A stretch of 64,000 nucleotides of DNA from Campylobacterales bacterium (GTDB taxonomy: Bacteria; Campylobacterota; Campylobacteria; Campylobacterales; QNZT01), in the NCBI GenBank assembly GCA_027023405.1, contig JALVVN010000038.1, forward strand, positions 147,333 to 211,332. The letters run 5' to 3'. The first letter of the stretch is position 1; every line of letters begins with the position of its first letter. Below, one piece after another: positions 30,432 to 62,395 of the stretch. The notes beneath the pieces were generated by a model, which made no database searches, was not told where the DNA came from, and was given only the letters and a program-made list of their open reading frames with translations. The translations under genes were made by a program, and so were the position numbers.

Positions 30432-32324
30432 TTAAAATTCAACGCTAAGTTTCTCTGTCTGTGATGCACCGACATGCACATCCGGTAGCACCTTTTTGTT
30501 GCCGTGTTCTGTCACTTCCACTTCATAAGTTCCTGTCGGAACTGTCACCGTCGCAACACCGCTACTACGATCGGAAAACTCATAATTTATGCGTTGATGA
30601 TTGTCAGTGCGATAGACACTTACCTTGACATAGAGCGGTTTTCCGCCTCGTGTGGCAACCACCTTGATCTTTCCATCTTGGAAACTGATATGTCTGGTGA
30701 TATCTCCACCCTCTTTGAGGTGGATATTTTTAAGTGTTTTTTGGAGTTTACCGTCGCGTGTACGGTAGGTTGCTCGCACCATATAGACACCCGCAGGTAG
30801 TTTGATCGTGTTCATCTTGTGACCACGCATACTATAAAAGGTTTTGACGCGATCTTTGGTACCGTTTTTAAACACTTCGATCCAAGCGCTGACCGGTTTG
30901 TTGTTTTGTGTTACACGCATACTCAAGCGCCCTACTTCGTTGTCGGGATTATATCCACCACCAAGTACACGATCATCCATCTTTCCGAGAACACGACCGG
31001 CGAAGATATCTTCCTCCTCTTTGGGCTGCGGATAGTGACTCTTTTTATCGATTACCTTGGTGATGACAATCTTATTGCCCGCTTTTTGAATACGACCTTC
31101 TGAAGGTTTCTCCTCCTCTTTGGGAGGGTTAAGATCCTCATAGCCCTCTTTATAATCGGTATTGATCGTTTCGCTTGGTTGCGGTGCTTCATAAGAGGGA
31201 GTCGGCTCCTGTTTGTTTGGTATAATCGGTTTTGGCACTTCAACCGGTGACGGCACATATACCGGAAGTGGTTTTGTTGCAATCTGTGTCGGTGCCGGTA
31301 TCGTGATCGGTTTAGATGTGGGGGGAGTGGTGCTCTTTTGTGTAGTGGGTTGTGGAGTAGATGCAATCGGATTTGTTTGTAGTTTGGGTGTGGTAGGAAC
31401 AATTTTTTGGGAAGCACTCTTTTTCTCCTCTTTGGAGGGTTTGAACTCTTTAAAAACAGGTGGTTTGATCGCACTCTCCTCTTCGATCTTTTTATCATCA
31501 AAGAGTTTTATTTCTGTCGGCAACTTAGAAAAATCGCGACGGATGATTGTGGCTTCTTGAGTCATCGCAGCAGGATCGACAGTCTCTTTTTTTGGCTGTG
31601 GTTTTGGTGCGGGAGCAGATATCGAATGAGGCTCACTCTTTTTCTCTTGCGTCTGCTCTTTTTTTTCATTTGATTTTGCCGACGGAGTCATCGAAAAGCT
31701 TTTGATAAGATTTTTGAAAATATGGGTAAAATTACTATAAAATGAGTCTGATAGCGGTTTTGTATGGTGTGTTTTAGCAGGTTGCATTTGTGTGCTTGAT
31801 AAGGTTTTTGGCTCCTCCGGTTGTTGAATGAGAGGCTGAGATTTGGGTTTGCTCTCCTCGACAAATTCACCGACAATAGGCTCTTGCTTAGGTGCGATCT
31901 TTTTTACTCTTTTTTTCTGTTTTCTCTTTTTTACCTTAGGGTGAGTTCTCTTTTTCTCTTGAAGTGCTTTTTTATAAAGCGCCTTTTTAACCATTGTCGG
32001 CAGAGCTTTTACCGGTGCAATGCGATACTGAAAAGTTCCACTATTAACATGAATTTTGATGCGATCGCCCGGCTGAACATTATCGTGAAAGACAAGATAA
32101 ATATCATCAACTTGATCTTGGGCGCTATAATAGACCTTGCCTCGGTTACTCATCTCAATATCGAAATTAGCATTACTCCCACTTTGTCGTATTAGATTTA
32201 GTGAGTGCCCATCGAGAGGTTGTAGAACAACCTCCTCTCCACTATGCAAGAGACCGCTTTGTGATGCCATTAGATAGACTATCCCACCTAGAGCTATGAC
32301 AAATAGTAAAATCTTTTTCAACAT
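30432..32324 (-). CDS. Secreted/anchored hypothetical protein with K/P/T/Q-rich spacer and tandem C-terminal beta-sandwich-like modules
   Basis: 630 aa with an N-terminal signal/TM (ILLFVIALGGIVYLMA) and about 300 aa of low complexity (KKRKQKKRVKK..., PTTPKLQTNPIASTPQPTTQKSTTPPTSKP). The C-terminus repeats IKLPAGVYMVRATY and VTVPTGTYEVEVTE. Its stop abuts the start of the pglF-like gene. Confidence 0.6.
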   Translation of the reverse strand: MLKKILLFVIALGGIVYLMASQSGLLHSGEEVVLQPLDGHSLNLIRQSGSNANFDIEMSNRGKVYYSAQDQVDDIYLVFHDNVQPGDRIKIHVNSGTFQYRIAPVKALPTMVKKALYKKALQEKKRTHPKVKKRKQKKRVKKIAPKQEPIVGEFVEESKPKSQPLIQQPEEPKTLSSTQMQPAKTHHTKPLSDSFYSNFTHIFKNLIKSFSMTPSAKSNEKKEQTQEKKSEPHSISAPAPKPQPKKETVDPAAMTQEATIIRRDFSKLPTEIKLFDDKKIEEESAIKPPVFKEFKPSKEEKKSASQKIVPTTPKLQTNPIASTPQPTTQKSTTPPTSKPITIPAPTQIATKPLPVYVPSPVEVPKPIIPNKQEPTPSYEAPQPSETINTDYKEGYEDLNPPKEEEKPSEGRIQKAGNKIVITKVIDKKSHYPQPKEEEDIFAGRVLGKMDDRVLGGGYNPDNEVGRLSMRVTQNNKPVSAWIEVFKNGTKDRVKTFYSMRGHKMNTIKLPAGVYMVRATYRTRDGKLQKTLKNIHLKEGGDITRHISFQDGKIKVVATRGGKPLYVKVSVYRTDNHQRINYEFSDRSSGVATVTVPTGTYEVEVTEHGNKKVLPDVHVGASQTEKLSVEF

Positions 32325-34103
32325 CTATACCATTTCCTTATGTTCAAATTCCGGTACAATCCGTTTTAGCGCCTCTATCTTATCATCACTTTGCAAAAGA
32401 TTCTCTATATCGCTATTAAGACGATCGATCGCATAGGGCGTAGGCTTGGCGACAAAGATAGAGTCGTAGGTTGTTTTTTTATCATCATCATTTAGCAGTA
32501 ACTCCTCATAGAGTTTTTCCCCCGCTCTCAAGCCGGTAAATTCAATTCCCAAATGCTCTTTATCATAAAGTTTGAGCATTTTTCGTGCCAGATCGACGAT
32601 CTTGATCGGTTTTCCCATATCCAGCACAAAGAGTTCCCGTTCTTTGGCAATTGCCGCCGCTTGAAGCACCAATTGGCAGGCTTCGGGTATAAGCATAAAG
32701 TAGCGGGTAATCTCAGGATGTGTTACGGCAAGCGGTCGATTGGCTTCGATGAGGCGTTTGAACTTCGGGATCACCGAACCGCTCGAACCGAGGACATTTC
32801 CAAAGCGCACACAGGTGATAAGCGTTTTGCCATTTGGTACATTTTGGGCATACAGTTCACACACCCGTTTGGTTGCTCCCATGACATTGGTGGGTCTGAC
32901 CGCTTTATCGGTGGAGATGAGAACGAAACGATCCGTACCGTATTTAATCGCAAGATCAATTGTATTTTTCGTTCCGATGACATTATTGAGTATTGCTCCT
33001 TCTTGATTCTCTTCACAGAGTGGTACATGTTTGTAGGCGGCAGCATGAATGACAATTTCCGGCCGATAAGTGGCAAAAGTCTTTTCTAGCAGCTTGCGAT
33101 CGACTACCGACTGCATGAGTGAGATCTTGGGCACTCCCTGAATCTGCTCTGAAATTGCATAGAGGTTGTATTCACTGTGATCAAGCAGTATCAACTCTTT
33201 GGCACCAAACCGCTCACATTGACGGGCGATCTCACTCCCGATACTTCCCCCCGCACCGGTAATCAAGATGCGCCGATCTCGAATCAGCGTCTCGATCGCT
33301 TTGAGATCGAGATCTTTGGGACGGCGCGCTAGCAAATCTTCAATGGAGATATCGATGAGCTTTTCATTTTTGTCGCCGAGGAGTTTAGAGCGTTTGATGT
33401 GGGTGATGCCTAGACTTGATAGCTTTTCAAAGAGAGCATCCATTTTGGAAGGTTCAAGATCAAGCGTAATAATCGCCGACTCAATCTCATCATCTGCGAC
33501 AATCTGCTCCAAATCTTCCATGCCAGATATTTTGAGAGATGCCATATATGTCCCGACAACATTCGCGTCTTCATCGACAATACTTACGGGCTCATAGGCA
33601 ATTTCTCCGTTTTTTGCACTGGAGATGAGTGAAAGTGTGCGTTGATTGGCTCCGATAAAGAGTGTGCGAGGACGATCTTCGTGAATCTGCGTACCGGCAA
33701 CGAGGCGTTTGGAAAGCCGCAAACTAAGAAGAAGAAAAAAAGAGAGAAGAAAATCGATCATGATGACTGTACGAGGGAAAGCACCATGATACCAAAAGAA
33801 GAGATAGGTAATAAAAAGTAGATAAGAGAGCAGTAGTGCATAGAGAATTTTTTTGCCATCTGAGAGTATAAAGTAGCGCCAAGTGATCTCATAGACTCTC
33901 AAAAGATACATTGAAACTATTTTTAATCCAACAATAATAAAAACCAGCGATGATGCGCCAAGAATATGCTCAGGAGGTATTTGGAGGTTGAAGCGCAGTA
34001 GATATGCGAGATAGAAAGAGAGATAAAAGATCAGTGCATCTGCAACGATAAAAAAGAGTGTGCGTTTCCACGGCGCACTCTTGAACAGATCAGTAATCTT
34101 CAA
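32325..34103 (-). CDS. pglF: Membrane-bound UDP-sugar 4,6-dehydratase (PglF/CapD/WbpM family)
   Basis: 592 aa with four N-terminal TM helices followed by a Polysacc_synt_2 SDR domain (ILITGAGGSIGSEI, AAAYKHVP, ISTDKAV). Confidence 0.8.
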   Translation of the reverse strand: MKITDLFKSAPWKRTLFFIVADALIFYLSFYLAYLLRFNLQIPPEHILGASSLVFIIVGLKIVSMYLLRVYEITWRYFILSDGKKILYALLLSYLLFITYLFFWYHGAFPRTVIMIDFLLSFFLLLSLRLSKRLVAGTQIHEDRPRTLFIGANQRTLSLISSAKNGEIAYEPVSIVDEDANVVGTYMASLKISGMEDLEQIVADDEIESAIITLDLEPSKMDALFEKLSSLGITHIKRSKLLGDKNEKLIDISIEDLLARRPKDLDLKAIETLIRDRRILITGAGGSIGSEIARQCERFGAKELILLDHSEYNLYAISEQIQGVPKISLMQSVVDRKLLEKTFATYRPEIVIHAAAYKHVPLCEENQEGAILNNVIGTKNTIDLAIKYGTDRFVLISTDKAVRPTNVMGATKRVCELYAQNVPNGKTLITCVRFGNVLGSSGSVIPKFKRLIEANRPLAVTHPEITRYFMLIPEACQLVLQAAAIAKERELFVLDMGKPIKIVDLARKMLKLYDKEHLGIEFTGLRAGEKLYEELLLNDDDKKTTYDSIFVAKPTPYAIDRLNSDIENLLQSDDKIEALKRIVPEFEHKEMV

Positions 34104-35025
34104 AACTTACCGCCTTATCAATAGTTCGCATTAAGATAAAAAGCAATATCATATAACAAATAAAATAAAGATAGAGCCATCTACTCTCATAGAGATAGAT
34201 AAGACCCAACAGCACTGCAAGATTGATACCCATCGCTATCATCACCACTTTATCGTGTGAAAAACCCATTTGCACGGCGCGTTGAAACAGATGCTTTCGA
34301 TGTGCGCTCATCAACCTCTCTCCCGCTAAAGCTCTTCGGATCAGCGTCACAGTCGCATCAAAGATAAAGAGTCCCAGTAGCATGAGCCACAACAGAAGGT
34401 CGTTTAATGAGTGACTATGGTAGAGTGCCATACAAAAAACGAGAAAGCCCAAAAAGGTACTTCCCGCATCGCCCATAAATATTTTCGCCTTGTGCCAATT
34501 GTGGAGCAAAAAACCACTCAAAAGCGCTATCAAGATGAGTAGCGTGGTGTCATGGAAAAAGAGCGTTGCAGCGCCGACGACAAAAATTGCTTCACTCGTT
34601 GCATAACCGTCAATACCGTCCAAGAAGTTGTAGAGATTGATCAGCCACACACCAGAGAGCATCATCAATATGGTTTGCCACCAGGCAAAATGTTCCCATA
34701 ATCCCAATGCCAACATCGCCCATACTACTACACTAAACTGTATCAACAATCGGTAAATGGGCTTTATATGTTTGATATCATCTAGGAAACCGACAAATGC
34801 CAAAGGGATACCACCCAAAAGTGCATAAAAAAGTTCAGAATCTATCTCTAACCGATAGTGCAAAATCACGATCGAAATATAAAACAACACCACAAAAACA
34901 GCACCACCCCCCGTAGGTGTCGGCATCTTGTGGGAGCTTCGATGATTTGGAAGATCGTGAGGTGCATAGGTGCGCATCCACCACACCCCAAAGTAGGAGA
35001 GTAAAAAGAGCATAAAATAGATCAT
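34090..35025 (-). CDS. Polyprenyl-phosphate HexNAc-1-phosphate transferase (GT4 MraY/WecA family)
   Basis: 311 aa polytopic protein with NLYNFLDGIDG and IFMGDAGSTFLGF motifs of the MraY/WecA/WbpL family. Overlaps the pglF-like gene by 14 nt and pglB by 4 nt. Confidence 0.8.
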   Translation of the reverse strand: MIYFMLFLLSYFGVWWMRTYAPHDLPNHRSSHKMPTPTGGGAVFVVLFYISIVILHYRLEIDSELFYALLGGIPLAFVGFLDDIKHIKPIYRLLIQFSVVVWAMLALGLWEHFAWWQTILMMLSGVWLINLYNFLDGIDGYATSEAIFVVGAATLFFHDTTLLILIALLSGFLLHNWHKAKIFMGDAGSTFLGFLVFCMALYHSHSLNDLLLWLMLLGLFIFDATVTLIRRALAGERLMSAHRKHLFQRAVQMGFSHDKVVMIAMGINLAVLLGLIYLYESRWLYLYFICYMILLFILMRTIDKAVSFEDY

Positions 35026-37130
35026 CTTTTTAGTCGATACACCTTTGCGTATGGGCTCATGATCACAGGTTCAAACAGATCTTTATCATAATTTTCAAAA
35101 ACAAACATTTGAATAAAAAGAGAGTTGTAAAACTTCTCATCCACTATCAAAAAAGTACCGTAACTTTGCAAAAAGATGATAGAGAGCTTGGCATTTGGAT
35201 CAAGTTCCTCTACTTTTTGATGAATCTTTCTCTCCTGATCGTACCCCACCACTACAAATCGCTTGAGCGTCGTAGCGCCTTTGCCGATGTGTAAAATCCC
35301 TTTCTCTTTTTCAAGTGCGATCCCGTGATCTAGGTTGAGAATCTTACCGTCATCTTTGAAGCGCCCAGTTTGATAATAGAAAGGTTGCTCACCCTTTTTA
35401 CCGGTCTCAAGATCAAGATTGCTAAAGAGATCAACCGTAGGAAAGATATTGAGCATACGATTGGGCAGATAGAGGTAGATATCACGCGTTTTTGGAGGCA
35501 GAGTATAGCTATCACTTTTGAGCTCATCCAACAGATCATTGGGGCTCTCTTTGGCAAAAAGTGTGTCAGCGACAACACCGCCCTCTTTAACATACTTCTC
35601 AACTGAAACTCTCGCGAGATTGGCTGCGAGTAGAGGTGAAGAAGTGTTGAGTATCTTGGATATGATATAGTTGTCATGTCCATGCTTACCACCGTCGATG
35701 AGCGTATTGGTATCGGAATAGTACCAGATCGGATAGCCGTAGTCCCACCAAGTTAGTGTATAATCTTTGTCACTTGCGATTTTGTCCAACTGCTTGAGAA
35801 CTTTTACCTCTTCGCTGTTGAAAACCGTCGGAACCTTATAGGAGATGATATGCTTGATATTGGGGTAGATCATCAGCGCTGTCAAGGCAGCGATCATTGC
35901 ATATTGAAAGGGTTTTTTATCGCTTGCATTTGCAATGATATAAAATAGATAAACCGCACTCATCGCCGCAATCGGCACGGCAAAAACGGTAAATCTAAGC
36001 CCACCCATTAGTGAAAACACACCGATTCCGATGAGAGGTAACGCAAGAATAAAAGAGCGATAACGAATAACAAGTAGAATATATCCAATGAGGCTAACGA
36101 GTAAGCCGGCAACTGACCCACTAATACGATTTGCCATGACAGAAAACGGTATCTTTCCCGCTTCTCGAACAGTTTGATTAACTTGAAAAAAGTGGAGCCC
36201 CTCTTCATCCACACTTCTTGAAAGATAATAGCTCACTTTACCTATGATGAGCGAGAATACATTGCCGAAATATAAAAACCCGACTACAGCAAAAAATGCC
36301 AATATCATAAGTGGTTTTAACTCTATGCTTGCCTTTTGCAAGATGAAATAAAATAGTACCAACACAGCAACAGTAGCTATGTACGAGAAGGGTGACGGGA
36401 TAAACGAATAAAAAGGCAATGCAGAAAGAGAGACCAAGATGATCGCTTTGTATGTATTCTTCTCTTTGCGATGATAGACAATGAGATAGAGAAAATAGAT
36501 CATCGACATCGCAAAGACCACCGCCCTGCCCTGATCGTACAAAAAAGGATAGATAGCGATCATCACCGCCGCATAAAGTGCACTTTTGAGCGTAAAATTT
36601 TTAACTGATGCCATAAAAAAATAGAGGACAAACATCGGTGCCATCGCTGCAAACATGTCGCTATCATAATAGCCGGTCATCGTACGGTTGTAGTAACTCC
36701 AAGCGATACTTCCAAGCAGTGCTGCAAAAAATCCCCAAAGCGTCGCACCAAAGAGTCTAGCGATCAAAATCATAGGTATCACAACCAATGAAGAGATAAT
36801 TGTAGGCATATAGAGTGTCACTGTCTCAAGCGAAAACGGCGTAATCTTAACTAGTAAAACTGTAAAAAATGTCACACCGTAACTAAGCCACGATGGAACT
36901 CTTGGATTTGGTTCATGCAAGCCAAAGAGTGCCTGTTGAGCTCCCGAGGCAAAGAAGTAGCCGTCATTTGTGTTGATCATAAGCTGACCATTGTAGTGAA
37001 ATGGTGCATAGTCTGCAAATTGAAATACCCATATAAGTCTGATGGCAAAGCTAAAAGCATAAGCTAGAAGAATAAGTCCTATAAGTTGCTTGGTTGAGAT
37101 ATTCTCTTTTGGTAGATCTAAAAATTGCAT
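35022..37130 (-). CDS. pglB: N-linked oligosaccharyltransferase PglB (STT3 family)
   Basis: 702 aa with a 13-TM-type N-terminal half carrying NTNDGYFF, a periplasmic domain with the diagnostic TWWDYGYPIWYYS (WWDYG) motif, and a downstream MLNI (MxxI-type) motif. Confidence 0.9.
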   Translation of the reverse strand: MQFLDLPKENISTKQLIGLILLAYAFSFAIRLIWVFQFADYAPFHYNGQLMINTNDGYFFASGAQQALFGLHEPNPRVPSWLSYGVTFFTVLLVKITPFSLETVTLYMPTIISSLVVIPMILIARLFGATLWGFFAALLGSIAWSYYNRTMTGYYDSDMFAAMAPMFVLYFFMASVKNFTLKSALYAAVMIAIYPFLYDQGRAVVFAMSMIYFLYLIVYHRKEKNTYKAIILVSLSALPFYSFIPSPFSYIATVAVLVLFYFILQKASIELKPLMILAFFAVVGFLYFGNVFSLIIGKVSYYLSRSVDEEGLHFFQVNQTVREAGKIPFSVMANRISGSVAGLLVSLIGYILLVIRYRSFILALPLIGIGVFSLMGGLRFTVFAVPIAAMSAVYLFYIIANASDKKPFQYAMIAALTALMIYPNIKHIISYKVPTVFNSEEVKVLKQLDKIASDKDYTLTWWDYGYPIWYYSDTNTLIDGGKHGHDNYIISKILNTSSPLLAANLARVSVEKYVKEGGVVADTLFAKESPNDLLDELKSDSYTLPPKTRDIYLYLPNRMLNIFPTVDLFSNLDLETGKKGEQPFYYQTGRFKDDGKILNLDHGIALEKEKGILHIGKGATTLKRFVVVGYDQERKIHQKVEELDPNAKLSIIFLQSYGTFLIVDEKFYNSLFIQMFVFENYDKDLFEPVIMSPYAKVYRLKR

Positions 37131-38137: not shown

Positions 38138-39148
38138 TCAACCTAAGAGACTCTTTTTTAAATAGTTTGATATTATTGTACCAATTCCAACCAAAGAACC
38201 AAAACCATATGAGATATGTAGAGTAATAAAAGTAGCAATAAGATAGAAAAATGAGTTATCTTCATCTTTTAGTTTGATTGAAAAGTATAAAATTGCAACA
38301 AGATATGCTAAAAATGAGGCTAATGAGATAATGAAAAATTTTTTATTTAATAAAGCCAACAAAGATGGTAATAGAAGTGACAATACAAAGAGAAGAGGAA
38401 TTATATGGTGAAGATGCAGTGATGAGAACCTTTTTGTGATATATGGATTTAGTACTACCCATTTACCGGTATTAAAACTCTTTTTTGCCAAATCTTTTAA
38501 GCTCTCTTTTGCATAATAGGTAAAAGAGAGATCAGGTACGATATATACTTTCCCTCCTCTATCAATAAATCTCTTATTTATCTCCAAATCCTCTGTTCTC
38601 TCTAACCGTTCATCAAAGCCTCCATATTTTAAAAGTGCCTCTTTTTTAAAGCATCCAAATGGAACAGTGTTTGATCTTTTAGGTTGATCGATTTCCCCTC
38701 TATAATCTCCTCCACCTACTCCAAATTTATGACTCATAACTGCTTTGATGGCATTTGTCTTTGGGGTTTTAGTCAGTACATCTGTAACACATACTCCACC
38801 TACATTATCTGCATCAAGCTTTTTTGCCCAATATAAAAGATTGGAAAAGTACTCCTTTGGATAGAGTGAGTGTGCATCTATACGGATGATATACGCCCCT
38901 TGAGCATGTTTTATACCTATGTTCATCGCAACAGGAATAATCTTTTTTTCATTTGTATATAGTTTTATAAAAGAATATTTTTGCATATACTCTTTTACTA
39001 TCTTTACGGTATTGTCACTACTTAAGCCATCGATAACTAATACTTCATAACTTCCTATTTTCAAATCTGACTCTATAACAGAGTCTAAACAAGAAGTGAT
39101 ATATCTCTCTTCATTTAGTGTAGGAATAATAATCGATACTTCAACCAT
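38138..39148 (-). CDS. Family 2 glycosyltransferase with C-terminal membrane anchor
   Basis: 336 aa with VSIIIPTLNEERYI...VIDGLSSDNT and a RIDAHS (DxH-like) region of GT2, plus 3-4 C-terminal TM helices. Confidence 0.8.
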   Translation of the reverse strand: MVEVSIIIPTLNEERYITSCLDSVIESDLKIGSYEVLVIDGLSSDNTVKIVKEYMQKYSFIKLYTNEKKIIPVAMNIGIKHAQGAYIIRIDAHSLYPKEYFSNLLYWAKKLDADNVGGVCVTDVLTKTPKTNAIKAVMSHKFGVGGGDYRGEIDQPKRSNTVPFGCFKKEALLKYGGFDERLERTEDLEINKRFIDRGGKVYIVPDLSFTYYAKESLKDLAKKSFNTGKWVVLNPYITKRFSSLHLHHIIPLLFVLSLLLPSLLALLNKKFFIISLASFLAYLVAILYFSIKLKDEDNSFFYLIATFITLHISYGFGSLVGIGTIISNYLKKSLLG

Positions 39149-39149
39149 A

Positions 39150-40052
39150 CTATAAAACTCTCTCTATCTGTTGATAAACATACTTGACACTCATATTATT
39201 AAAACATTTAAAATCTTGGCACTTTATAGGTTTATATTTTGTATGAAAACATGGACGACAATCTATGTCAATATATATATCAAAGTTTCTATCTCTATCA
39301 TAACTTCCAACCTCTTTTTCATCAGTCATCCCAAAGATAGTAAATGTTTTAATCCCAACCGCTTTTCCTATATGCATCAAACCGTTATCGTTTCCTATCA
39401 GTAGATCTAACTTTGATATAACATTTATACTATCTTCCAAACTCTCTTTAACGATCTTTATCGATTTGGCATCTTTTAATCTATCATATAAATCATCTTC
39501 ATCCGGACCGATAAAAACTAAAATATTTGCATCAAACTTACCCATTAATTCTATAAACTTTTCAATATCCCATCTCTTGAACTTCTGTTTATACCCACTA
39601 CCGACAGCAAAACCTATATTTTTTCTATTTTGAACTATATATGGTTGAAATGAATCACTTTTTGGGATATATATATAAGGCTGTTTAGTAATCTCTTTAC
39701 AAAACGGCTTGACCATATTGAGATTTAACTCTAGTCTGTGAATGCCTTTTTTTTGAAATGTCGAGATTACATGTTTTGCACCTATCATCAGGTTTAAAAG
39801 TTTTGCCTTTAGGGGATTGGTTCCTGCAGTTACAATAAAGTAATCATACTTTTTATAAAATCTCAAAAAATCTGTTATCTTGTTGATTACAAATATATTT
39901 TTGACAAATTTAGCCTCTTTCACTATCGATCTATTTATACTATTTGTTAGTACTAAATCAACTTCATATCCATTTAATGCTAAAGTTTTCAACATCGGTG
40001 TTGCCATAACAAGATCGCCTATACCCCAACTATGAAATACTAAAATTTTCAT
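39150..40052 (-). CDS. Family 9 glycosyltransferase (heptosyltransferase-like)
   Basis: 300 aa with an N-terminal KILVFHSWGIGDLVMATPMLKTL and C-terminal LIGNDNGLMHIGKAVGIKTFTIFG, the GT9 signature blocks. Confidence 0.8.
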   Translation of the reverse strand: MKILVFHSWGIGDLVMATPMLKTLALNGYEVDLVLTNSINRSIVKEAKFVKNIFVINKITDFLRFYKKYDYFIVTAGTNPLKAKLLNLMIGAKHVISTFQKKGIHRLELNLNMVKPFCKEITKQPYIYIPKSDSFQPYIVQNRKNIGFAVGSGYKQKFKRWDIEKFIELMGKFDANILVFIGPDEDDLYDRLKDAKSIKIVKESLEDSINVISKLDLLIGNDNGLMHIGKAVGIKTFTIFGMTDEKEVGSYDRDRNFDIYIDIDCRPCFHTKYKPIKCQDFKCFNNMSVKYVYQQIERVL

Positions 40053-40055
40053 TTC

Positions 40056-41111
40056 CTACACATACTCTTTCAAATAATTTAACAGCTTTTGACTCTGTCT
40101 ATCCCAACTAAATTTACTAAAGTCAAAGTTATGCACTTTTTTTTCAATGCTGGTCATCATTTTATCAAATTCATCAATCTTTGCAAACTCGATAAACGGA
40201 AAATTTTTTTGTTTTAACAACTTCAAAGGGGTCGATAAAACTGTAGCACCGGACAAACCATACTCTAAAGCTTTAATTGGAAATGCATTGTTAGTAAAAT
40301 CGTTTAATTTGAATGGTATCAAACCGATATCAAGGGTTTTAAAGTAGTCTCCTACTTTTTCAGGAGAGATCATACCTGTAAAGATGATATCATTTTGGTA
40401 TCTTCTTTTTAACTCTTGAAAAAAGTAGGAATTGCTATCACCGACAACAATCATTGCGTTGTTATGTGATTTAACTTTCATATATGCTTCACAGGCTCTA
40501 TCTATCCCTGTCCACTCATCTACTCCACCAATATAACCAAACACCTTTTTCTCTTCTAATCCAAGTTCTCTTTTAAGTGACTTTGCCTCTGCAAACCTAT
40601 CGATATATACCCCATTTTCAATAGTTATAACATTTTGATTTAACTCTCTTACTTTTTCCTGCAATATATCCGTAACCGCTATAACTGCTTGTGAATTTCT
40701 TATATCATCTTTTATCTTACCAACGCGTTTCCTGCTAAGACCTATATCACTGTTTATCTCTAGATGGTCATCTACCAAATCATAAACCACAGGAACTTTT
40801 ATTTTTTTTATATCAAATAACAACGCGTTTGCATTAACAACTATATCTATGTGTAATTTATCTATCAACAGGTTAAGATTTTTACTGTTTATTTGAGCTG
40901 CGAACTTCTCAGGTCGAAAAAGGAGTGGTATCTGGACTATCTTCCCATCTTGTTTATATTTTAATGAGTTGAGTTGTGATTTAACCTTCTCTTTAAATGA
41001 ACTATTCTCAATCTCCCAATATAAAAAATAGCTATTTGTACTTTTTGCAAACTCATAAACGCGGTTTATCAACTTTATATTTGGTGTATGGGGGATGAAG
41101 AGGATGTTCAT
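40056..41111 (-). CDS. GT-B fold glycosyltransferase (GT4/GT1-like)
   Basis: 351 aa with a GYIGGVDEWTGID region and a C-terminal FPIKALEYGLSGATVLST block resembling the E-x7-E region of Glycos_transf_1. Confidence 0.65.
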   Translation of the reverse strand: MNILFIPHTPNIKLINRVYEFAKSTNSYFLYWEIENSSFKEKVKSQLNSLKYKQDGKIVQIPLLFRPEKFAAQINSKNLNLLIDKLHIDIVVNANALLFDIKKIKVPVVYDLVDDHLEINSDIGLSRKRVGKIKDDIRNSQAVIAVTDILQEKVRELNQNVITIENGVYIDRFAEAKSLKRELGLEEKKVFGYIGGVDEWTGIDRACEAYMKVKSHNNAMIVVGDSNSYFFQELKRRYQNDIIFTGMISPEKVGDYFKTLDIGLIPFKLNDFTNNAFPIKALEYGLSGATVLSTPLKLLKQKNFPFIEFAKIDEFDKMMTSIEKKVHNFDFSKFSWDRQSQKLLNYLKEYV

Positions 41112-42322
41112 TTTGACAATAACCTTCCTTTAAAATATAAAGCTGAAAAAAACATGAGTAAAAAACTTATATCCAAACTATATATTATTGATTTTTCATC
41201 TAAACCAAACAGATACAAGAGAGCTATTATAATAAAAAAAGTGATATTCCCTATAACTCTCACCCAAAGTGCGAGATCAAACCTGTCGAATCCTTTTAAT
41301 ATATTAACAAGAAAAGATGTGTAGATTATAAATGGTAAAAACGGCAACATAAGATTAAGTAATTTATAACTATTTTGATAGCTTACTGGAAAAATCAATC
41401 CTATAACTGTCTTGGTAAAAAAAAGACCTACTAGTATTAACAAAAACATCAGTAGCAAATATTTTTGTAATACTTTTTCCATTCTTGTTACTTCATAATA
41501 TCTATTTTCAGAGATAAATCTGGAGACTTCAGGAAAAGTATAAGATGCAACAGGGTGAGCAAAAATAGCAACAAGTGCAAAAAAAATACTTTTTACAACA
41601 ACTTGATACTCTGATAAGATATCACTACTATTAAAAAAATAAAGCATAATTATTGCACTCATATAGATTGATATTGAACCCAAAAAAGATGTAACTGTGG
41701 CAAGTAGATAATTTTTCATAAATTTTTTATAAGTATCTATATTAACAAAATTTTCAGGCATAAAAAATATGTTTGGAGAAGTAATGTATATATATATTGT
41801 ATGAATAAACATTTGTAAAATGTATGCAACTATAAGAGCATTAAGATTGTCAAAATATTTACTTAGTATTACAAAACTTAGTACTAAACTTAAAGCTTTT
41901 ATGCTCTTTTCATAAAGCATAGAGTTATAGTTTTTATATGCTACATTCAAATATGAATAAAAATTTGATATTTGTGTGGCTATAAAGAAAAGTAGTAGCA
42001 AATAGACAGAAAATATTTTATTCTGATTATTTTGTAAATTATAGAGCAAAAGTAGTACTAGCACAGAGGCAATACTCACTGCTAAATAGTTTCTAACAAT
42101 ATATCTATATACTTCAAAAAACTTTTTTTCCGAATATACTTTAATCATACTATCTTTGTATCCTGTAAAAAAAAGAGCTACTATTGATACTAAATCCAAC
42201 AAAGTATAAAAAATACCAAGTTTATCTTTAGATATATGGTAAGATAAATATATCTTAAATCCAAAGTTGATAGCTGTAACAAAAATAGTTAATAAGATTG
42301 ATTTAGAGATTATGCTTTTCAT
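41108..42322 (-). CDS. Polytopic membrane protein, Wzx-like oligosaccharide flippase (MOP superfamily)
   Basis: 404 aa that is almost entirely hydrophobic helices (about 10-12), sitting among glycosyltransferases. No sharp motif; called by topology and context. Confidence 0.55.
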   Translation of the reverse strand: MKSIISKSILLTIFVTAINFGFKIYLSYHISKDKLGIFYTLLDLVSIVALFFTGYKDSMIKVYSEKKFFEVYRYIVRNYLAVSIASVLVLLLLYNLQNNQNKIFSVYLLLLFFIATQISNFYSYLNVAYKNYNSMLYEKSIKALSLVLSFVILSKYFDNLNALIVAYILQMFIHTIYIYITSPNIFFMPENFVNIDTYKKFMKNYLLATVTSFLGSISIYMSAIIMLYFFNSSDILSEYQVVVKSIFFALVAIFAHPVASYTFPEVSRFISENRYYEVTRMEKVLQKYLLLMFLLILVGLFFTKTVIGLIFPVSYQNSYKLLNLMLPFLPFIIYTSFLVNILKGFDRFDLALWVRVIGNITFFIIIALLYLFGLDEKSIIYSLDISFLLMFFSALYFKGRLLSK

Positions 42323-43679: not shown

Positions 43680-44444
43680 CTATTCCTCTTTTTTAAACAC
43701 ATAATAGTAGTTAACAAGTTTATTTAAACTTGGCTTCCAAACTAAGTCTTTGCATTTTAAACACCTAAGAAGATACTTATACATCTTTTCTTGAAATAAA
43801 AAACTTAATTTTAACCTGTTTAATAGATCTCTTAACTCACCTACTCTATAAGCTAAATTCTCTTTTGTAACTAAAAGTTTTAGTTCATTTATATCTTTAT
43901 AAAAATTTTTGAAACGATAATAAGCAATATATCTATCATCTATTTTATCAACTCTCTCTTTTGTCATAACACTTTCCCTTAAAACCAAAACAGCACTCTT
44001 ATTTAGTATCTTATTTATATTTTCATAGATATAGTTGATAGATCTATCCTCAATATACATTAACACACCACCAACATAAATAAAGTCATATTTAACTTTA
44101 CTATGCCCTATCCACTCTTCTAATGTCGCTTTATGATACTGAATATTTGTAAAATCACTATTTTCTCTATTTCGTTTGATTATAGGCTGTGCAATATCTA
44201 TCGCATCAACTTTATCAAAATATTGAGATAATACTCTACTAAATCTACCATTTCCACATCCTACATCCAATGCTCTTGTTCTATTATTATGTGTTGTAAA
44301 TTTATATATAAACTCTTTTAACTCTTCCTTTTCAATCAAAAAACGAAAATTATTAATTTTTGAATCATTACTTATATAACCACCGTCATCTAAATCGTTA
44401 TAAGCACTATTCCAAAACTCATCAATAATTTTATTTGTTTGCAT
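43680..44444 (-). CDS. Class I SAM-dependent methyltransferase
   Basis: 254 aa with motif I ALDVGCGNGRFS, an acidic loop VDAIDIA and the downstream FIYVGGVLMYIED. Confidence 0.8.
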   Translation of the reverse strand: MQTNKIIDEFWNSAYNDLDDGGYISNDSKINNFRFLIEKEELKEFIYKFTTHNNRTRALDVGCGNGRFSRVLSQYFDKVDAIDIAQPIIKRNRENSDFTNIQYHKATLEEWIGHSKVKYDFIYVGGVLMYIEDRSINYIYENINKILNKSAVLVLRESVMTKERVDKIDDRYIAYYRFKNFYKDINELKLLVTKENLAYRVGELRDLLNRLKLSFLFQEKMYKYLLRCLKCKDLVWKPSLNKLVNYYYVFKKEE

Positions 44445-45438
44445 TTTTCATCATTTCAATTTGTTCTAAAAGATAGTTTTTTGTATCTCTCTGTTCTTGT
44501 AAATACTTTTCTATTACCTCCATCTCTTCATCTATTTCCAATATATACTCAGTATCCATCTTTATCTCATTTTCAATAGAGACATTGGCTATCAAATAGC
44601 CTATATCCCTTTTATTACCTTTTCTTAATCTTTCTAACAATGTTGGAAAATCATCTTTCCTAAAAGGGAAAAAATGGCGTGTTGTTCGTGGAGGATATAA
44701 TTTTTCATTTAATGCTCTATCAATAACTTCAGCTTTTGAAATAGTTAAAGTTTTATCCTTTAAAAAACGATGTTTTAGATGGTTCCCGACAAAAATTGTT
44801 TCATCTTCATAATTGACATACAATACAGGTGCTTCAAGATAACCCTCTTGTAATAAATAGGCATACCTGTGAGATCCATCTAAAACAATATTATATTTTC
44901 TATCTACAATCAAAGGTTTTTTTATAAAACCATCTTTTTCTACCATATCAGCAATATTTGAAAGATGAGTAGGTAAAACTTGTTCTAATGGTCTTAATTG
45001 ATCTATAGGTACTAACTCAACAGACATTTTAATATTTAAACTACTCAAAGAGAGTGCTTTTAATGCCATGCTATTATTTCGTAATTCCGTAGCACTGTAG
45101 CCTATTCCCTCCGTCCTTGGAATGAATTTAGTTTTATACTCTTTAGAGAGTTTATCTAAAACTTTTTGGTTCCCCGACAACACAGTATCTACTCCACTAG
45201 GGATAACAACCGTTCCTTTCTCTACTATTCCAGTAACTTTATGAACTTCAATTGATTTAAAATCTGCAAATACTTCATTTAATATATCACAAACTTCTGT
45301 TGTGGACATTATCTTTTTGTCTTCTGTTACACCGATAATTAACTTTTCATACTCTTTATATATCCTCAATATTGTACGAATGTGTCCTAAATGTGGGGGT
45401 TGAAACTTTCCTAAAAAGATTGCAACATTTTTACTCAA
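44431..45438 (-). CDS. Fusion protein: cytidylyltransferase-fold domain + ParB/sulfiredoxin-like domain
   Basis: 335 aa. The N-terminus has GKFQPPHLGH (HxGH) and PRTEGIGYSATELR (RTEGIS-type). Residues ~140-215, VELVPIDQLRPLE...PLIVDRKYNIVLDGSHRYAYL, resemble the ParB/Srx DGxHR fold. The C-terminus is a coiled tail. Confidence 0.65.
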   Translation of the reverse strand: MSKNVAIFLGKFQPPHLGHIRTILRIYKEYEKLIIGVTEDKKIMSTTEVCDILNEVFADFKSIEVHKVTGIVEKGTVVIPSGVDTVLSGNQKVLDKLSKEYKTKFIPRTEGIGYSATELRNNSMALKALSLSSLNIKMSVELVPIDQLRPLEQVLPTHLSNIADMVEKDGFIKKPLIVDRKYNIVLDGSHRYAYLLQEGYLEAPVLYVNYEDETIFVGNHLKHRFLKDKTLTISKAEVIDRALNEKLYPPRTTRHFFPFRKDDFPTLLERLRKGNKRDIGYLIANVSIENEIKMDTEYILEIDEEMEVIEKYLQEQRDTKNYLLEQIEMMKNANK

Positions 45439-60296: not shown

Positions 60297-61427
60297 TTAA
60301 CCCATTAACAAAACAACATACCTCACATTTCTACCGGCTGTTCCCTCTACCTGTTTTATGAGATTTTTAGTGACCAGATCAGCGATATCTCTCTTGGCTG
60401 TAGCTGGAGAAGTTTTTGCTATGGAGATATATTTTTTTGTATTTAGACCACCTTCGAAACCGTCAACTCCCGCATCGAGTAACTTATTGAGCACTTTTAT
60501 TTGACGAGTGTTTAGCGGATACTCTCTTGCCCTATCCCAAAAATTGGCTTTTTGTACGGCTATTTGAACCTGTTGTAGTGATATTTCTATCGCTTTGTTT
60601 ATCAAATCTATATGCCAAGATATCCACTCTGTGAGATCTAAGTTTTTATTGTACATCAGCTTTTGGCTTTGCTCTAAAAGCTCATAGTATCTCTTTTTAT
60701 CCTCCACTATGGCTGTAGATATGGAGTAGTAACCGTCATTTAATCCAAGCTCTTTTGATAAGAGATAGTTTGTTATCGCTCTTGCAATTCTACCGTTTCC
60801 ATCATCATAAGGGTGTATCGTCACAAACCAAAAGTGGGCTATTGCGGCTTTAGTGTAAGGCTCTTGCGTACTTGTGTTTACAAACGCCAAAAAAGCGTCC
60901 ATCTCTTTATCTAAAATATCCGGTGGCGGTGCGATGTAGTGCGTCTGTTCTCTACCACCCCTATTGGAGACAATAGACATCTCCTCTTCTCTAAATTTAG
61001 CTACATTGATTTTATAGAGTCCGCTATAACCATCAGGAAAGAGCGTATGGTGCCATCCGTTAAGTCGTTCTACTGTAAGCGGCGAGTGATTTGTACTGCT
61101 ATCCATAAACATAGCCACAAGTCCATCGGTATGTTTTGTAGAGCTATCTTTTTTGCTAACGCTACCGGATAACTTTTTTAAAATAGACGAACGAACACTT
61201 TGACGATCCAAAACCTCACCCTCTATTTGAGAGGAGGTAACGATTTCATTGATAAAAGATTCTACTTTAAGCACATTGCTTTTTTGAACCCCAAGCATAG
61301 TAAGTATGCCGTCTAATCTACCACTGTTTTGACTCACAGACAATAAACTTCTACTCAACCGATCTTTATCGTATCTGAAATGAGGATAATTATCATCTTG
61401 CCATATCCAAATTTTCTCACTCTGCAT
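60297..61427 (-). CDS. Fic-family protein (class II, with N-terminal inhibitory motif and C-terminal wHTH)
   Basis: 376 aa with the Fic core HPYDDGNGRIARA (HxFx(D/E)GNGRxxR type, with Y at the F position), an upstream SSQIEG matching the (S/T)xxxE(G/N) alpha-inh motif, and an N-terminal IWIWQDDNYPHFRYD DUF4172-like start. Confidence 0.85.
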   Translation of the reverse strand: MQSEKIWIWQDDNYPHFRYDKDRLSRSLLSVSQNSGRLDGILTMLGVQKSNVLKVESFINEIVTSSQIEGEVLDRQSVRSSILKKLSGSVSKKDSSTKHTDGLVAMFMDSSTNHSPLTVERLNGWHHTLFPDGYSGLYKINVAKFREEEMSIVSNRGGREQTHYIAPPPDILDKEMDAFLAFVNTSTQEPYTKAAIAHFWFVTIHPYDDGNGRIARAITNYLLSKELGLNDGYYSISTAIVEDKKRYYELLEQSQKLMYNKNLDLTEWISWHIDLINKAIEISLQQVQIAVQKANFWDRAREYPLNTRQIKVLNKLLDAGVDGFEGGLNTKKYISIAKTSPATAKRDIADLVTKNLIKQVEGTAGRNVRYVVLLMG

Positions 61428-61528
61428 CTCTACCCTTGCTCTATGTGAGCCAATTATTTAAGATAATCGTATCATAATATGAGCTGATTGTCAAATTGAA
61501 ACGGCTTGAAGTACAATAACTACACGCT

Positions 61529-62395
61529 TTATATCAATCCAAGCTCTTGGGAGATGTCTTTGATGAGTTTTGAGAGTGAGTATCTATGCAGTTCATTTTC
61601 ATCAGGGAGATAGTTACCAAATAGATCTTGCTTGACCTCCTCCTCTGTTTTTTGTGTCAGTTGTGCCAACTCTCTAATACGACTATCTGGATAGGCTTTG
61701 CGTTTCTGTATCATTTCAAGTACTTTATATTTATGGTGGGCATAACGACCGTTTAGCTCAAAGACTTCGATATATTTTGAGTACAGATCGCTAAAATCCT
61801 CTTTCAACAAAAGCTCAAAATCTTTTTCATTTTCAATTATTAGATGCGGATTGCTCATAAAAGTTTTAAATCGTACTCTCTCATCAAAGTCAAAACTATT
61901 GGATGTCGGCACTCTCTTGCCGATATTTTGCTCCTTTTTTAGTTTAGAGTTGCAAATATAGCAAGAGGGGATAATATTATAAAGGCTGAGTGCCAAATGG
62001 GGATATTCTGTTTTTGGCAAAATATGATCAAGCGTATAACCACTTTTTGTATTTTTATTTGTCGTTTTAAACAGATTGATAAAGTCTATATTGCAGTAGT
62101 AGCAGGTATGAATCTCTAAATACTTTTTAAATATATCAGAGATATGTTTTCGATATTTGTTTTGATAGTCAAAAAGTTTTGCAATTTCATCATTTATACC
62201 AGTTGGCAATTTTATCTTAGATAGTTTATCAAACGAAGAGCATAGTAGAGTTCGTAAATCACATTTGATATGCTTTTCAAACTCCTCACGATATATCTCT
62301 CCAAGTGTTTTATTGCCATAGGATCGATGCTTTCTTTTTGATAGATCAGCATAATAGACATCCTCTATCTTGTGATATTCAGTTACTTTTATCAC
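61529..62395 (-). CDS. HNH endonuclease, PtuB-like (candidate Septu nuclease)
   Basis: 288 aa with CYYC-x22-DHILPK-x13-NIIPSCYICNSKLK, a CxxC...DH...N...CxxCN zinc-HNH core. The start overlaps the stop of the upstream ATPase by 17 nt. Confidence 0.65.
   Translation of the reverse strand: MIKVTEYHKIEDVYYADLSKRKHRSYGNKTLGEIYREEFEKHIKCDLRTLLCSSFDKLSKIKLPTGINDEIAKLFDYQNKYRKHISDIFKKYLEIHTCYYCNIDFINLFKTTNKNTKSGYTLDHILPKTEYPHLALSLYNIIPSCYICNSKLKKEQNIGKRVPTSNSFDFDERVRFKTFMSNPHLIIENEKDFELLLKEDFSDLYSKYIEVFELNGRYAHHKYKVLEMIQKRKAYPDSRIRELAQLTQKTEEEVKQDLFGNYLPDENELHRYSLSKLIKDISQELGLI

Follow-up and report, generated by a model that had tools for sequence, protein, structure and literature searches.

Which reaction is carried out by a protein that joins a nucleotidyltransferase (NTase) domain to a domain with the ParB/sulfiredoxin (ParB/Srx) fold, and what does the surrounding operon do with its product? 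This question is raised by a gene at positions 44431-45438 of a 64,000-nucleotide stretch of contig JALVVN010000038.1 from a Campylobacterales bacterium (the whole stretch is referred to as the window). We suggest that the encoded fusion protein is probably a bifunctional beta-hydroxy-amino-acid kinase and phospho-amino-acid cytidylyltransferase, which would supply cytidine diphosphate (CDP)-serine or CDP-threonine for the phosphodiester-linked decoration of a glycan. The glycan decoration would probably be N-methylated and D-configured. This reading is built on observations that are described below, namely what the domains are, that their catalytic motifs are intact, and that the gene associations are conserved.

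The fusion gene is one open reading frame (ORF) of 335 amino acids (aa) on the minus strand in the ORF list. Its start codon is TTG, which overlaps the TGA of the preceding gene and has AGGAG ~8 nt upstream. The N-terminus that this start gives agrees with the N-termini of the homologs in the alignment. The protein carries the motifs H16-L-G-H19, S88GN, R108TEGIGYSATELR, P150LE152, D187GSHR, and T252TRH. The domain architecture that a preliminary description had read at this position was borne out, and all of the motifs it quoted were located in the minus-strand ORF. The AlphaFold model of the full-length protein, which was built on a 30-sequence alignment, has a predicted local distance difference test (pLDDT) score of 86.1 and exhibits two domains, between which residues 111-136 form a disordered linker, and a C-terminal helix that spans residues 288-333 and is long. 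This helix probably serves oligomerisation. In the permuted members of the family, the alignment places the equivalent of the helix as the linker to the NTase domain.

The closest relatives of the C-terminal domain are the two known kinases of free serine, the archaeal ADP-dependent enzyme SerK and SbnI, the latter of which takes adenosine triphosphate (ATP) as its phosphate donor. The search of residues 136-215 against NCBIfam identified SerK (E 2.8e-13) and SbnI (E 4.3e-7). The sequence search against the PDB identified SerK with an E-value of 4.9e-8, where residues 139-215 of the query correspond to residues 17-97 of SerK and residues 234-271 correspond to residues 204-241. The latter segment falls within the C-terminal subdomain of SerK, and TTRH is kept in it, and residues ~100-200 of SerK are unmatched. 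E152 of the query (RPLEQ) is aligned with Glu30 of SerK (KPHEQ), including the A and Q variants in 5x0e and 5x0j. Glu30 was mutated in two of the SerK crystal structures, E30A and E30Q. The family profile matched the SerK homolog 1vk1 (1.6e-14), SerK (1.2e-13), and SbnI (6e-8) in the PDB. The C-terminal half was also modelled separately, with a pLDDT of 94.3 and a predicted template modelling (TM) score of 0.87. All significant PDB matches of this isolated half in Foldseek have the ParB/Srx fold, where SerK takes ranks 1-6 (7.7e-9) and SbnI takes ranks 7-9, followed by ParB N-domains, Noc, ParB-CDP, KorB, PadC, and sulfiredoxin. ParB, Noc, and KorB are weak and partial structural matches (E 1e-3 or worse over ~80-120 columns). 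The structural identity to SerK is ~17%.

The assignment to the ParB/Srx fold is far beyond chance. The preliminary description had proposed this fold for residues ~140-215 with their DGxHR block, and the proposal stood: SerK and SbnI rank at the top by sequence, profile, and fold, D187GSHR is invariant, and the C-terminal domain stays inside the ParB/Srx fold in the domain search, in the AlphaFold model, and in the comparison with SerK, SbnI, and ParB. SerK (Thermococcus kodakarensis TK0378; 5x0b) and SbnI (Staphylococcus) share with the fusion protein the fold, the DGxHR block, the Glu at the position of Glu30, and the TTRH...PF motif. The fusion protein differs from them in having the NTase domain and the coiled-coil helix, and in a genomic context of surface glycan rather than cysteine or siderophore biosynthesis. 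By its sequence scores, the fusion protein is a distant relative of SerK and SbnI and no equivalog.

The invariant positions of the alignment are all located in the SerK-like half (P150, E152, H158, D179, D187-G-S, R191, and R251..R254HFFPFRK261). HxGH, DGSHR, P-[L/I]-E, and RTTRHFFPFRK are each carried by 30/30 sequences. The invariant Glu at the position of SerK Glu30 and the presence of TTRH throughout support the identity of this half as a kinase. ParB N-terminal domains bind and hydrolyse cytidine triphosphate (CTP). The ParB/Srx-like domain could accordingly be a regulatory or delivery module that binds CTP or another nucleoside triphosphate (NTP) and is no kinase, with the phospho-substrate coming from elsewhere, and the binding of CTP rather than ATP has been reported for one SerK-like archaeal protein (PMC12704722). 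The preliminary description had raised a CTP-binding regulator as its alternative, which is disfavoured here and which we consider very unlikely. The domain is more closely related to the enzymes SerK and SbnI than to the ParB switches. The catalytic Glu is invariant, and so is the TTRH segment towards the C-terminus, a part of SerK that is missing from ParB. The ParB/Noc/KorB CTPase switches have a helix-turn-helix (HTH) and a dimerisation domain, whereas neither an HTH or other DNA-binding domain nor a ParB C-terminal domain was found in the Pfam scan or the structure model of the fusion protein. No other candidate kinase recurs in the surveyed neighbourhoods. Stand-alone SerK-like genes adjoin stand-alone NTase genes, as genes for consecutive enzymes would.

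The N-terminal domain is an HxGH NTase. Pfam PF01467 (CTP_transf_like) matches residues 7-46 with 29.3 bits (gathering cutoff 21), and Foldseek matched the N-terminal part of the full-length model with PPAT/NMNAT-type HxGH NTases in the PDB at a target-normalised TM score of ~0.6, and the C-terminal part with SerK structures. H16LGH19 and a SxxxxR-type motif (YSATELR) are present together with a Rossmann-like fold, which places the domain in the PF01467 superfamily. Archaeal NMNAT MJ0541, PPAT, and TagD share with residues 1-128 both their fold and the HxGH and SxxxxR-type motifs, and the archaeal NMNAT is the best profile match of these residues. The earlier reading of this domain as TagD/CCT/ECT-type with an RTEGIS block did not hold, since the family profile is closer to archaeal NMNAT MJ0541 (1f9a, 6e-14) than to TagD (1coz, just 7e-4) in the PDB. 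In the same profile comparison, the counterpart of the RTEG.GYS..ELR segment is FNRKEYSGTEIRR, a motif of archaeal NMNAT. The curated NMNAT cutoffs are missed, with 30.1 bits against 127 (PRK01153) and 23.6 bits against 181 (TIGR01527). Compared with NMNAT, the nucleotide predicted for the window protein is CTP, the predicted acceptor is a phospho-amino acid, and the domain is fused to a kinase. Because the N-terminal domain is nearest to NMNAT, its nucleotide specificity is not set by homology, so the term cytidylyl is taken from the genomic context.

A cofactor adenylyltransferase that combines a kinase with an NMNAT, by analogy with NadR, would agree with the archaeal NMNATs being the closest solved relatives of the N-terminal domain and with several annotations of the Joint Genome Institute (JGI) that name homologs NMNAT. 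We regard this as the remotest of the readings weighed here. The score at the NMNAT cutoff is far too low, and the kinase-like domain is fused elsewhere to a GT-A NTP_transferase that has no role in the synthesis of nicotinamide adenine dinucleotide (NAD). A NadR-like role in NAD salvage was rejected on genomic context, which is always related to glycans or CDP-transferases and never to NAD salvage.

The word-indexed search identified 526 homologs, most of which are ~335 aa long and have the architecture of the window protein. They come from Aliarcobacter, Acinetobacter, Francisella, Thermomonas, Carnobacterium, and many metagenomes, and their public labels are generic ("adenylyltransferase/cytidyltransferase family protein", "hypothetical", "Y4yB"). 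The family ranges over Campylobacterota, Gammaproteobacteria, Firmicutes, Bacteroidota, Chloroflexota, Saccharibacteria, and the DPANN and methanogenic archaea. The exhaustive search of the SerK-like half against 1.84 billion representatives identified 995 relatives at E <= 1e-3 but no more than 23 clusters at E <= 1e-30. The tight SerK-like family is small and architecturally diverse. When plasmids and phages were searched by tblastn, no full-length protein of the fusion family turned up, and the matches were distant SbnI/Y4yB-like ParB-N proteins only. The survey of the ParB fold (PMC12704722) and its supplements contain no mention of PF01467 or PF00483 fusions, and nothing relevant was found in our literature search for an earlier description of the fusion architecture.

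Four ways of coupling the SerK-like domain to an NTase were identified. The order from NTase to SerK-like domain is found in the window protein and in most homologs. The permuted order from SerK-like domain to NTase is found in five proteins (P0093, P0096, P0105, P0110, and P0116). The two domains are encoded by separate overlapping genes in L009 (Saccharibacteria) and L016 (Mariniphaga). The SerK-like domain of DPANN archaea is fused to an unrelated GT-A-type NTP_transferase (PF00483/IspD-like; L010, L015, L017, and P0125), and a PF00483-type NTase is encoded by a separate adjacent gene in L011 (Methanosarcinales) and L013 (Nanoarchaeota). The archaeal NTase matches the CTP-dependent IPCT/DIPPS family over nearly the whole cytidylyltransferase part of the model. 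The recruitment of two unrelated NTase folds to one kinase-like domain is hard to explain unless the product of that domain is the substrate of the NTase. As a separate observation, the metagenomic protein P0121 (760 aa) has an asparagine-synthase-like PF00733 domain N-terminal to its SerK-like domain, which may amidate the carboxylate of the amino acid.

CDP-activated amino acids have a precedent in flagellin glycosylation. The type A flagellin glycan of C. difficile is GlcNAc-phospho-N-methyl-L-threonine (PMC10714395; PMC11833859), and the flagellin glycans of C. difficile and P. aeruginosa acquire phospho-N-methyl-threonine or phospho-N,N-dimethyl-threonine via CDP-threonine (PMC10714395; PMC11833859; bioRxiv 10.64898/2026.02.12.704994). 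The Fta pathway was proposed in 2023 and largely shown in a 2026 preprint (bioRxiv 10.64898/2026.02.12.704994). It consists of FtaA, a haloacid dehalogenase (HAD)-type phosphotransferase; FtaB, a GT-A cytidylyltransferase; FtaC, a CDP-threonine N-methyltransferase; and FtaD, a TagF-like phosphotransferase (PMC10714395; PMC11833859; bioRxiv 10.64898/2026.02.12.704994). The 2026 work on C. difficile flagellin was the first to show CDP-activated amino acids as cellular donors, and its authors consider that such intermediates may be more general. They were aware of CDP-glutamine as the sole other CDP-amino acid, and a SerK/ParB-type route is unmentioned (bioRxiv 10.64898/2026.02.12.704994).

Gene neighbourhoods were compared across 26 independent loci, which comprise the window, 19 genome loci, and 6 further contigs, by unsupervised clustering, BLAST, and Pfam. 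A CDP-dependent phosphotransferase adjoins the SerK-like/NTase module in 22 of the 26. The transferases belong to three classes, where a PF01066 CDP-alcohol phosphotransferase (CDP-AP) is found in 13 loci, a TagF/FtaD-like protein in seven, and a LicD-like protein in two. The TagF/Glyphos_transf-like proteins score 26.5 and 26.9 bits (cutoff 22.1) and also exhibit weak similarity to Epimerase_2, as its authors report for FtaD. The TagF-like call for the Francisella and Aliarcobacter proteins was made through the Pfam matches of the Acinetobacter and Thermomonas proteins and the BLAST family links. In the PDB sequence search, the upstream proteins of Francisella and Aliarcobacter returned coiled-coil noise or nothing. 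The LicD-like protein in L026 scores 30.8 bits (cutoff 22.6). The three classes replace one another, and the sole hint of two in one locus is L025, which has a TagF-like protein and a sub-threshold LicD match. All three families use CDP-activated donors, and CTP is predicted on this basis as the nucleotide of the fusion protein.

The gene associations extend into flagellin and polysaccharide loci. The fusion, a methyltransferase, and a TagF-like gene are located among flagellin and Maf genes in Aliarcobacter skirrowii and between flagellin genes in Thermomonas brevis, and in Francisella philomiragia they are located in a polysaccharide cluster. The preliminary description had proposed that the protein could phosphorylate an alcohol and then convert it to the CDP-alcohol. 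This order gains support from all of the comparative tests that were applied, namely from the kinship with SerK and SbnI, the two NTase folds, the occurrence of both domain orders, and the recurrence of CDP-dependent transferases, and is predicted here on those grounds.

The class of the substrate is indicated by two further enzymes. One methyltransferase family is found in 16 of the 24 loci that were first clustered and in the added L025-L027. It is common to all locus types, and its invariant residues lie outside the S-adenosylmethionine (SAM) motif as well. An aspartate-racemase-type racemase is found in 11 loci. In L006 (11456-12772) and L008 (11040-12359), from Wohlfahrtiimonas and Acinetobacter, a fusion protein of ~440 aa combines the racemase with the methyltransferase, which implies that both act on the same intermediate. 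Since the racemase needs a chiral alpha-amino acid, the substrate would belong to the amino acids. The methyltransferase, for its part, is similar to N-methyltransferases such as Methyltransf_PK and NodS.

CobD is an O-phospho-L-threonine decarboxylase. CobD is also the best match (E 1e-39 to 1e-41) of the gene that immediately precedes the NTase-SerK-like fusion in DPANN loci. It ranks ahead of HisC, yet the score is under the equivalog cutoff. The substrate of CobD is the kind of molecule that a Ser/Thr hydroxyl kinase would yield, and this again points to an amino-acid substrate. The CobD-like pyridoxal phosphate (PLP) enzyme stands beside the NTase-SerK-like fusion and a CDP-AP in L012 (289-1218), L015 (8280-9221), L017 (8280-9227), and L020 (8310-9242), and the same methyltransferase family is often present in those loci. 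This DPANN four-gene set looks, from its gene content, like a Ser/Thr-based Kennedy-like route to a CDP-amino-alcohol head group. DPANN archaea are thought to lack lipid biosynthesis.

The same succession of kinase and CDP activation could act on an amino alcohol or hydroxy acid, such as ethanolamine, serinol, homoserine, isoserine, or glycerate, in place of a proteinogenic beta-hydroxy amino acid. The likeness to SerK is low (~17% structural identity, far under the equivalog cutoff, with the middle region gone), and the archaeal loci with a CobD-like decarboxylase probably end in a CDP-amino-alcohol. We nevertheless hold such a substrate to be unlikely. The alpha-amino-acid racemase with both catalytic Cys recurs as described and is joined to the methyltransferase in two loci, and enzymes of the CobD type take O-phospho-amino acids, so that an amino acid precedes the amino alcohol even in the archaeal loci. 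No decarboxylase was found in the window.

The operon of the window agrees with an amino acid as the substrate and with a glycan as the acceptor. Its minus-strand genes abut or overlap one another all the way from 47171 to 38138, so that they form one operon, which is a low-GC island (27-30% GC, compared with 44-50% in the flanks). The features of the operon and of the adjoining genes are listed in Table 1. The first gene encodes the toroid-methyltransferase, which may be a second methyltransferase by its domain content and which is found directly upstream of the fusion in the PglB-linked loci only (the window, L002, and L027). The 254-aa protein is the putative N-methyltransferase of the CDP-amino acid. 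The racemase matches TIGR00035 with 140.7 bits (cutoff 93) and a CuyB-like family at 7e-47, and its closest solved relative is the aspartate racemase of P. horikoshii (1jfl, 2e-31). It keeps both catalytic-Cys motifs (LPC84NS and GC190TEL). The CDP-AP, which is the putative phospho-amino-acid transferase, has hydrophobic segments and the full D-x2-DG-x2-AR-x8-G-x3-D-x3-D motif (D77NFDGQWARVKKMTSKFGALFDSLVD). No HAD protein of the FtaA type was found in the operon in the ORF list and the Pfam scan.

Table 1. Coordinates of the fusion gene, its parts, and the neighbouring genes in the window.
Feature	Position	Strand	Evidence or remark
Fusion gene, 335 aa	44431..45438	minus	NTase domain, then SerK-like domain, then coiled-coil helix
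HxGH (class I) NTase domain, residues 1-125	45064..45438	minus	GKFQPPHLGH, SGN, RTEGIGYSATELR
SerK/SbnI-like ParB/Srx-fold domain, residues 137-285	44584..45030	minus	P150-L-E152, D187GSHR, PRTTRHFFPFRK; putative amino-acid hydroxyl kinase
Long C-terminal helix, residues 288-333	44440..44577	minus	DSSP of the full model; residues 153-198 of the half-model
Toroid-methyltransferase, 578 aa	45435..47171	minus	alpha/alpha-toroid (prenyltransferase / squalene-hopene-cyclase-like repeats) and class I SAM methyltransferase; first operon gene
Class I SAM methyltransferase, 254 aa	43680..44444	minus	Methyltransf_PK, NodS, and other methyltransferase matches
PLP-independent Asp/Glu-type racemase, 227 aa	42996..43679	minus	PF01177 5.5e-27
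Membrane CDP-AP, 226 aa	42319..42999	minus	PF01066 8.5e-15
Wzx-like flippase	41108-42322	minus	Pfam scan
GT1/GT4-type glycosyltransferase	40056-41111	minus	Pfam scan
GT9 glycosyltransferase	39150-40052	minus	Pfam scan
GT2 glycosyltransferase	38138-39148	minus	Pfam scan
PglB/STT3 oligosaccharyltransferase, 702 aa	35022-37130	minus	directly downstream of the low-GC operon
Glycos_transf_4 initiating transferase	34090-35025	minus	N-glycosylation gene
PglF-like dehydratase	32325-34103	minus	N-glycosylation gene

By their content, the genes at 32325-37130 make up the core of a locus for N-linked protein glycosylation, and this core looks complete. The low-GC island resembles a variable part of the pgl/lipooligosaccharide (LOS) region that was gained by horizontal transfer. 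L002, a Sulfurovum metagenome-assembled genome that is the closest named relative, and the metagenomic L027 have the same operon, which again ends at PglB, and L027 carries the small methyltransferase gene twice. The membrane CDP-AP has a cytoplasmic active site, and a flippase and PglB follow it. This order suggests that the decoration is added to a lipid-linked oligosaccharide prior to flipping. LOS may be the target instead, as the operon contains a GT9 gene. Nothing usable came from our literature search on the N-glycan structures of vent Campylobacterota.

The CDP-amino acid could instead be made for the membrane, with the CDP-AP moving the group to a lipid such as diacylglycerol and yielding a phosphatidyl-(N-methyl)-serine-like lipid by a Kennedy-type route. 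The characterised PF01066 enzymes mostly make phospholipids, the best NCBIfam matches of the window CDP-AP are archaetidylinositol-phosphate and PIP synthases, and the archaeal loci have no obvious glycan context. A lipid product is nonetheless improbable in our judgement, since the operon of the window, L002, and L027 holds a Wzx-like flippase and three glycosyltransferases and adjoins PglB. In other loci, the CDP-AP is swapped for TagF/FtaD-like or LicD-like glycan phosphotransferases, and these loci are flagellin or polysaccharide loci.

The route to a decorated glycan that we infer from this operon has five steps, in which every activity, the use of CTP, the amino acid and its chirality, the relative order of racemisation and methylation, and the acceptor are predictions. 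Firstly, the SerK-like domain would phosphorylate a free beta-hydroxy amino acid on its side-chain hydroxyl, with E152 as the catalytic base. The substrate is most likely serine by homology, and could be threonine by analogy with Fta. Secondly, the HxGH domain would join the O-phospho-amino acid and CTP to give CDP-serine or CDP-threonine and pyrophosphate. Thirdly, the racemase would invert the alpha-carbon and the SAM methyltransferase(s) would N-methylate, with the CDP-amino acid as the probable substrate. The two pairs of fusions, kinase with NTase and racemase with methyltransferase, together with the precedent of FtaC, suggest that racemisation and methylation take place on the CDP-amino acid. 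Fourthly, the membrane CDP-AP would put the phospho-amino acid on a hydroxyl of the lipid-linked glycan at the cytoplasmic face, where cytidine monophosphate (CMP) would be released. Lastly, the Wzx-like protein would flip the glycan, and the decorated form would be used by PglB (for an N-glycan) or for LOS.

This predicted logic resembles that of FtaABCD (CD0241-CD0244) in C. difficile and PA1088-PA1091 in P. aeruginosa, where a phospho-amino acid is converted to a CDP-amino acid, N-methylated, and transferred to a sugar hydroxyl. A TagF/FtaD-like transferase is located beside the fusion in seven related loci, two of which are flagellin glycosylation islands. The enzymes for the first two steps are not homologous. 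FtaA is HAD-type and phosphoserine-phosphatase-like, whereas the kinase in the window has the ParB/Srx fold. FtaB is a GT-A NTP_transferase, whereas the window has an HxGH domain. PF00483 NTases accompany the SerK-like domain in the archaeal loci. FtaC is a small class I SAM methyltransferase, and its candidate counterpart is the dedicated class I methyltransferase family that co-travels with the fusion. FtaD lacks the CDP-AP motif, whereas this motif is complete in the PF01066 CDP-AP of the window, which is a canonical one. Compared with Fta, the window adds the racemase, the second toroid-methyltransferase, and the membrane CDP-AP, and it adjoins PglB rather than flagellin. By this analogy, the fusion looks like a non-homologous one-protein replacement of FtaA and FtaB.

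Other systems share parts of the route. LicA/LicC/LicD and TarI/TarJ/TarL have a like order of kinase (or reductase), cytidylyltransferase, and CDP-alcohol phosphotransferase acting on surface glycans, but the folds of the kinase and the cytidylyltransferase are unrelated and the head group predicted here is an amino acid. IPCT/DIPPS likewise pairs a cytidylyltransferase with a PF01066 CDP-AP on a polar non-lipid CDP-alcohol, and both the window CDP-AP and the archaeal NTase match this family. It differs in that its cytidylyltransferase is of the GT-A type and is fused to the transferase rather than to a kinase, and in that its product is an osmolyte.

Several points weigh against the assignment of the fusion protein as an amino-acid kinase and cytidylyltransferase. 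The SerK score is 49.6 bits against an equivalog cutoff of 380 (NF053625), and the SbnI score is 29.6 against 350 (NF033589). About 100 residues of the middle of SerK (~100-200) have no counterpart, and the query holds ~20 residues there. The substrate may therefore differ from that of SerK. The nearest solved relatives of the NTase domain are adenylyltransferases (NMNAT and PPAT), not cytidylyltransferases, and the partner enzymes are the one source from which CTP was inferred. SerK uses adenosine diphosphate (ADP). It is strictly specific for L-serine and does not accept homoserine (PMC5120207). SerK itself also refuses threonine (PMC5120207). SbnI is described as ATP-binding (PMC12704722), and the phosphate donor of the kinase step in the fusion protein cannot be predicted. 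No CDP-dependent transferase was found in four of the 26 loci, in each of which the contig ends near the gene. Our literature search found no glycan with phospho-serine or a phospho-D-amino acid.

A wider picture can be offered tentatively, and we hold it to be possible rather than likely. It is that a widespread and unrecognised CDP-amino-acid route exists, in which the operon of the window would put phospho-(N-methyl)-D-Ser or D-Thr on a PglB-dependent N-glycan, and in DPANN archaea the same kinase module would work together with a GT-A cytidylyltransferase, a CDP-AP, and a CobD-like decarboxylase in a Kennedy-like route that leads from serine or threonine to CDP-amino-alcohol head groups. 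If the proposed functions are true, the enzymatic repertoire of the ParB/Srx fold would be extended into glycan biosynthesis, and the fusion would be an independent and non-homologous solution to making CDP-amino acids. New phospho-amino-acid epitopes, possibly D-configured and N-methylated, would be expected on N-glycans, LOS/O-antigens, and flagellins, and their predicted carriers include Aliarcobacter, Francisella, and Acinetobacter. The fusion protein would also be a compact two-step enzyme to make CDP-amino-acid donors for glycoengineering.

Minor observations were made outside these loci and elsewhere in the window. Distant SerK/SbnI-like "ParB N-terminal domain" proteins are encoded on plasmids of Rhizobiales and Burkholderia (H1-H13, e.g. 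NZ_CP116698.1 537033-537437). One of them adjoins a type III PLP-dependent enzyme and resembles SbnI/SbnH-type siderophore clusters. These plasmid proteins probably explain the "Y4yB" label on one homolog. A 630-aa ORF at 30432-32324 on the minus strand of the window is flanked by the PglF-like gene on one side and by a radical-SAM CofH/MqnC-like gene on the other, and it has no significant Pfam domain and a sub-threshold match to DUF4493 only. The minus-strand genes at 60297-63932 encode a DUF4172-Fic/DOC protein, an HNH endonuclease-domain protein, and an AAA_21 (AbiEii/OLD-like) ATPase, and they lie in a second low-GC stretch (27% GC at 62-64 kb) that is probably a defence or mobile island. 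The gene at 12680-14308 on the plus strand encodes a 542-aa BatD-domain protein and coincides with a strong AT skew of 0.29 at 12-14 kb.

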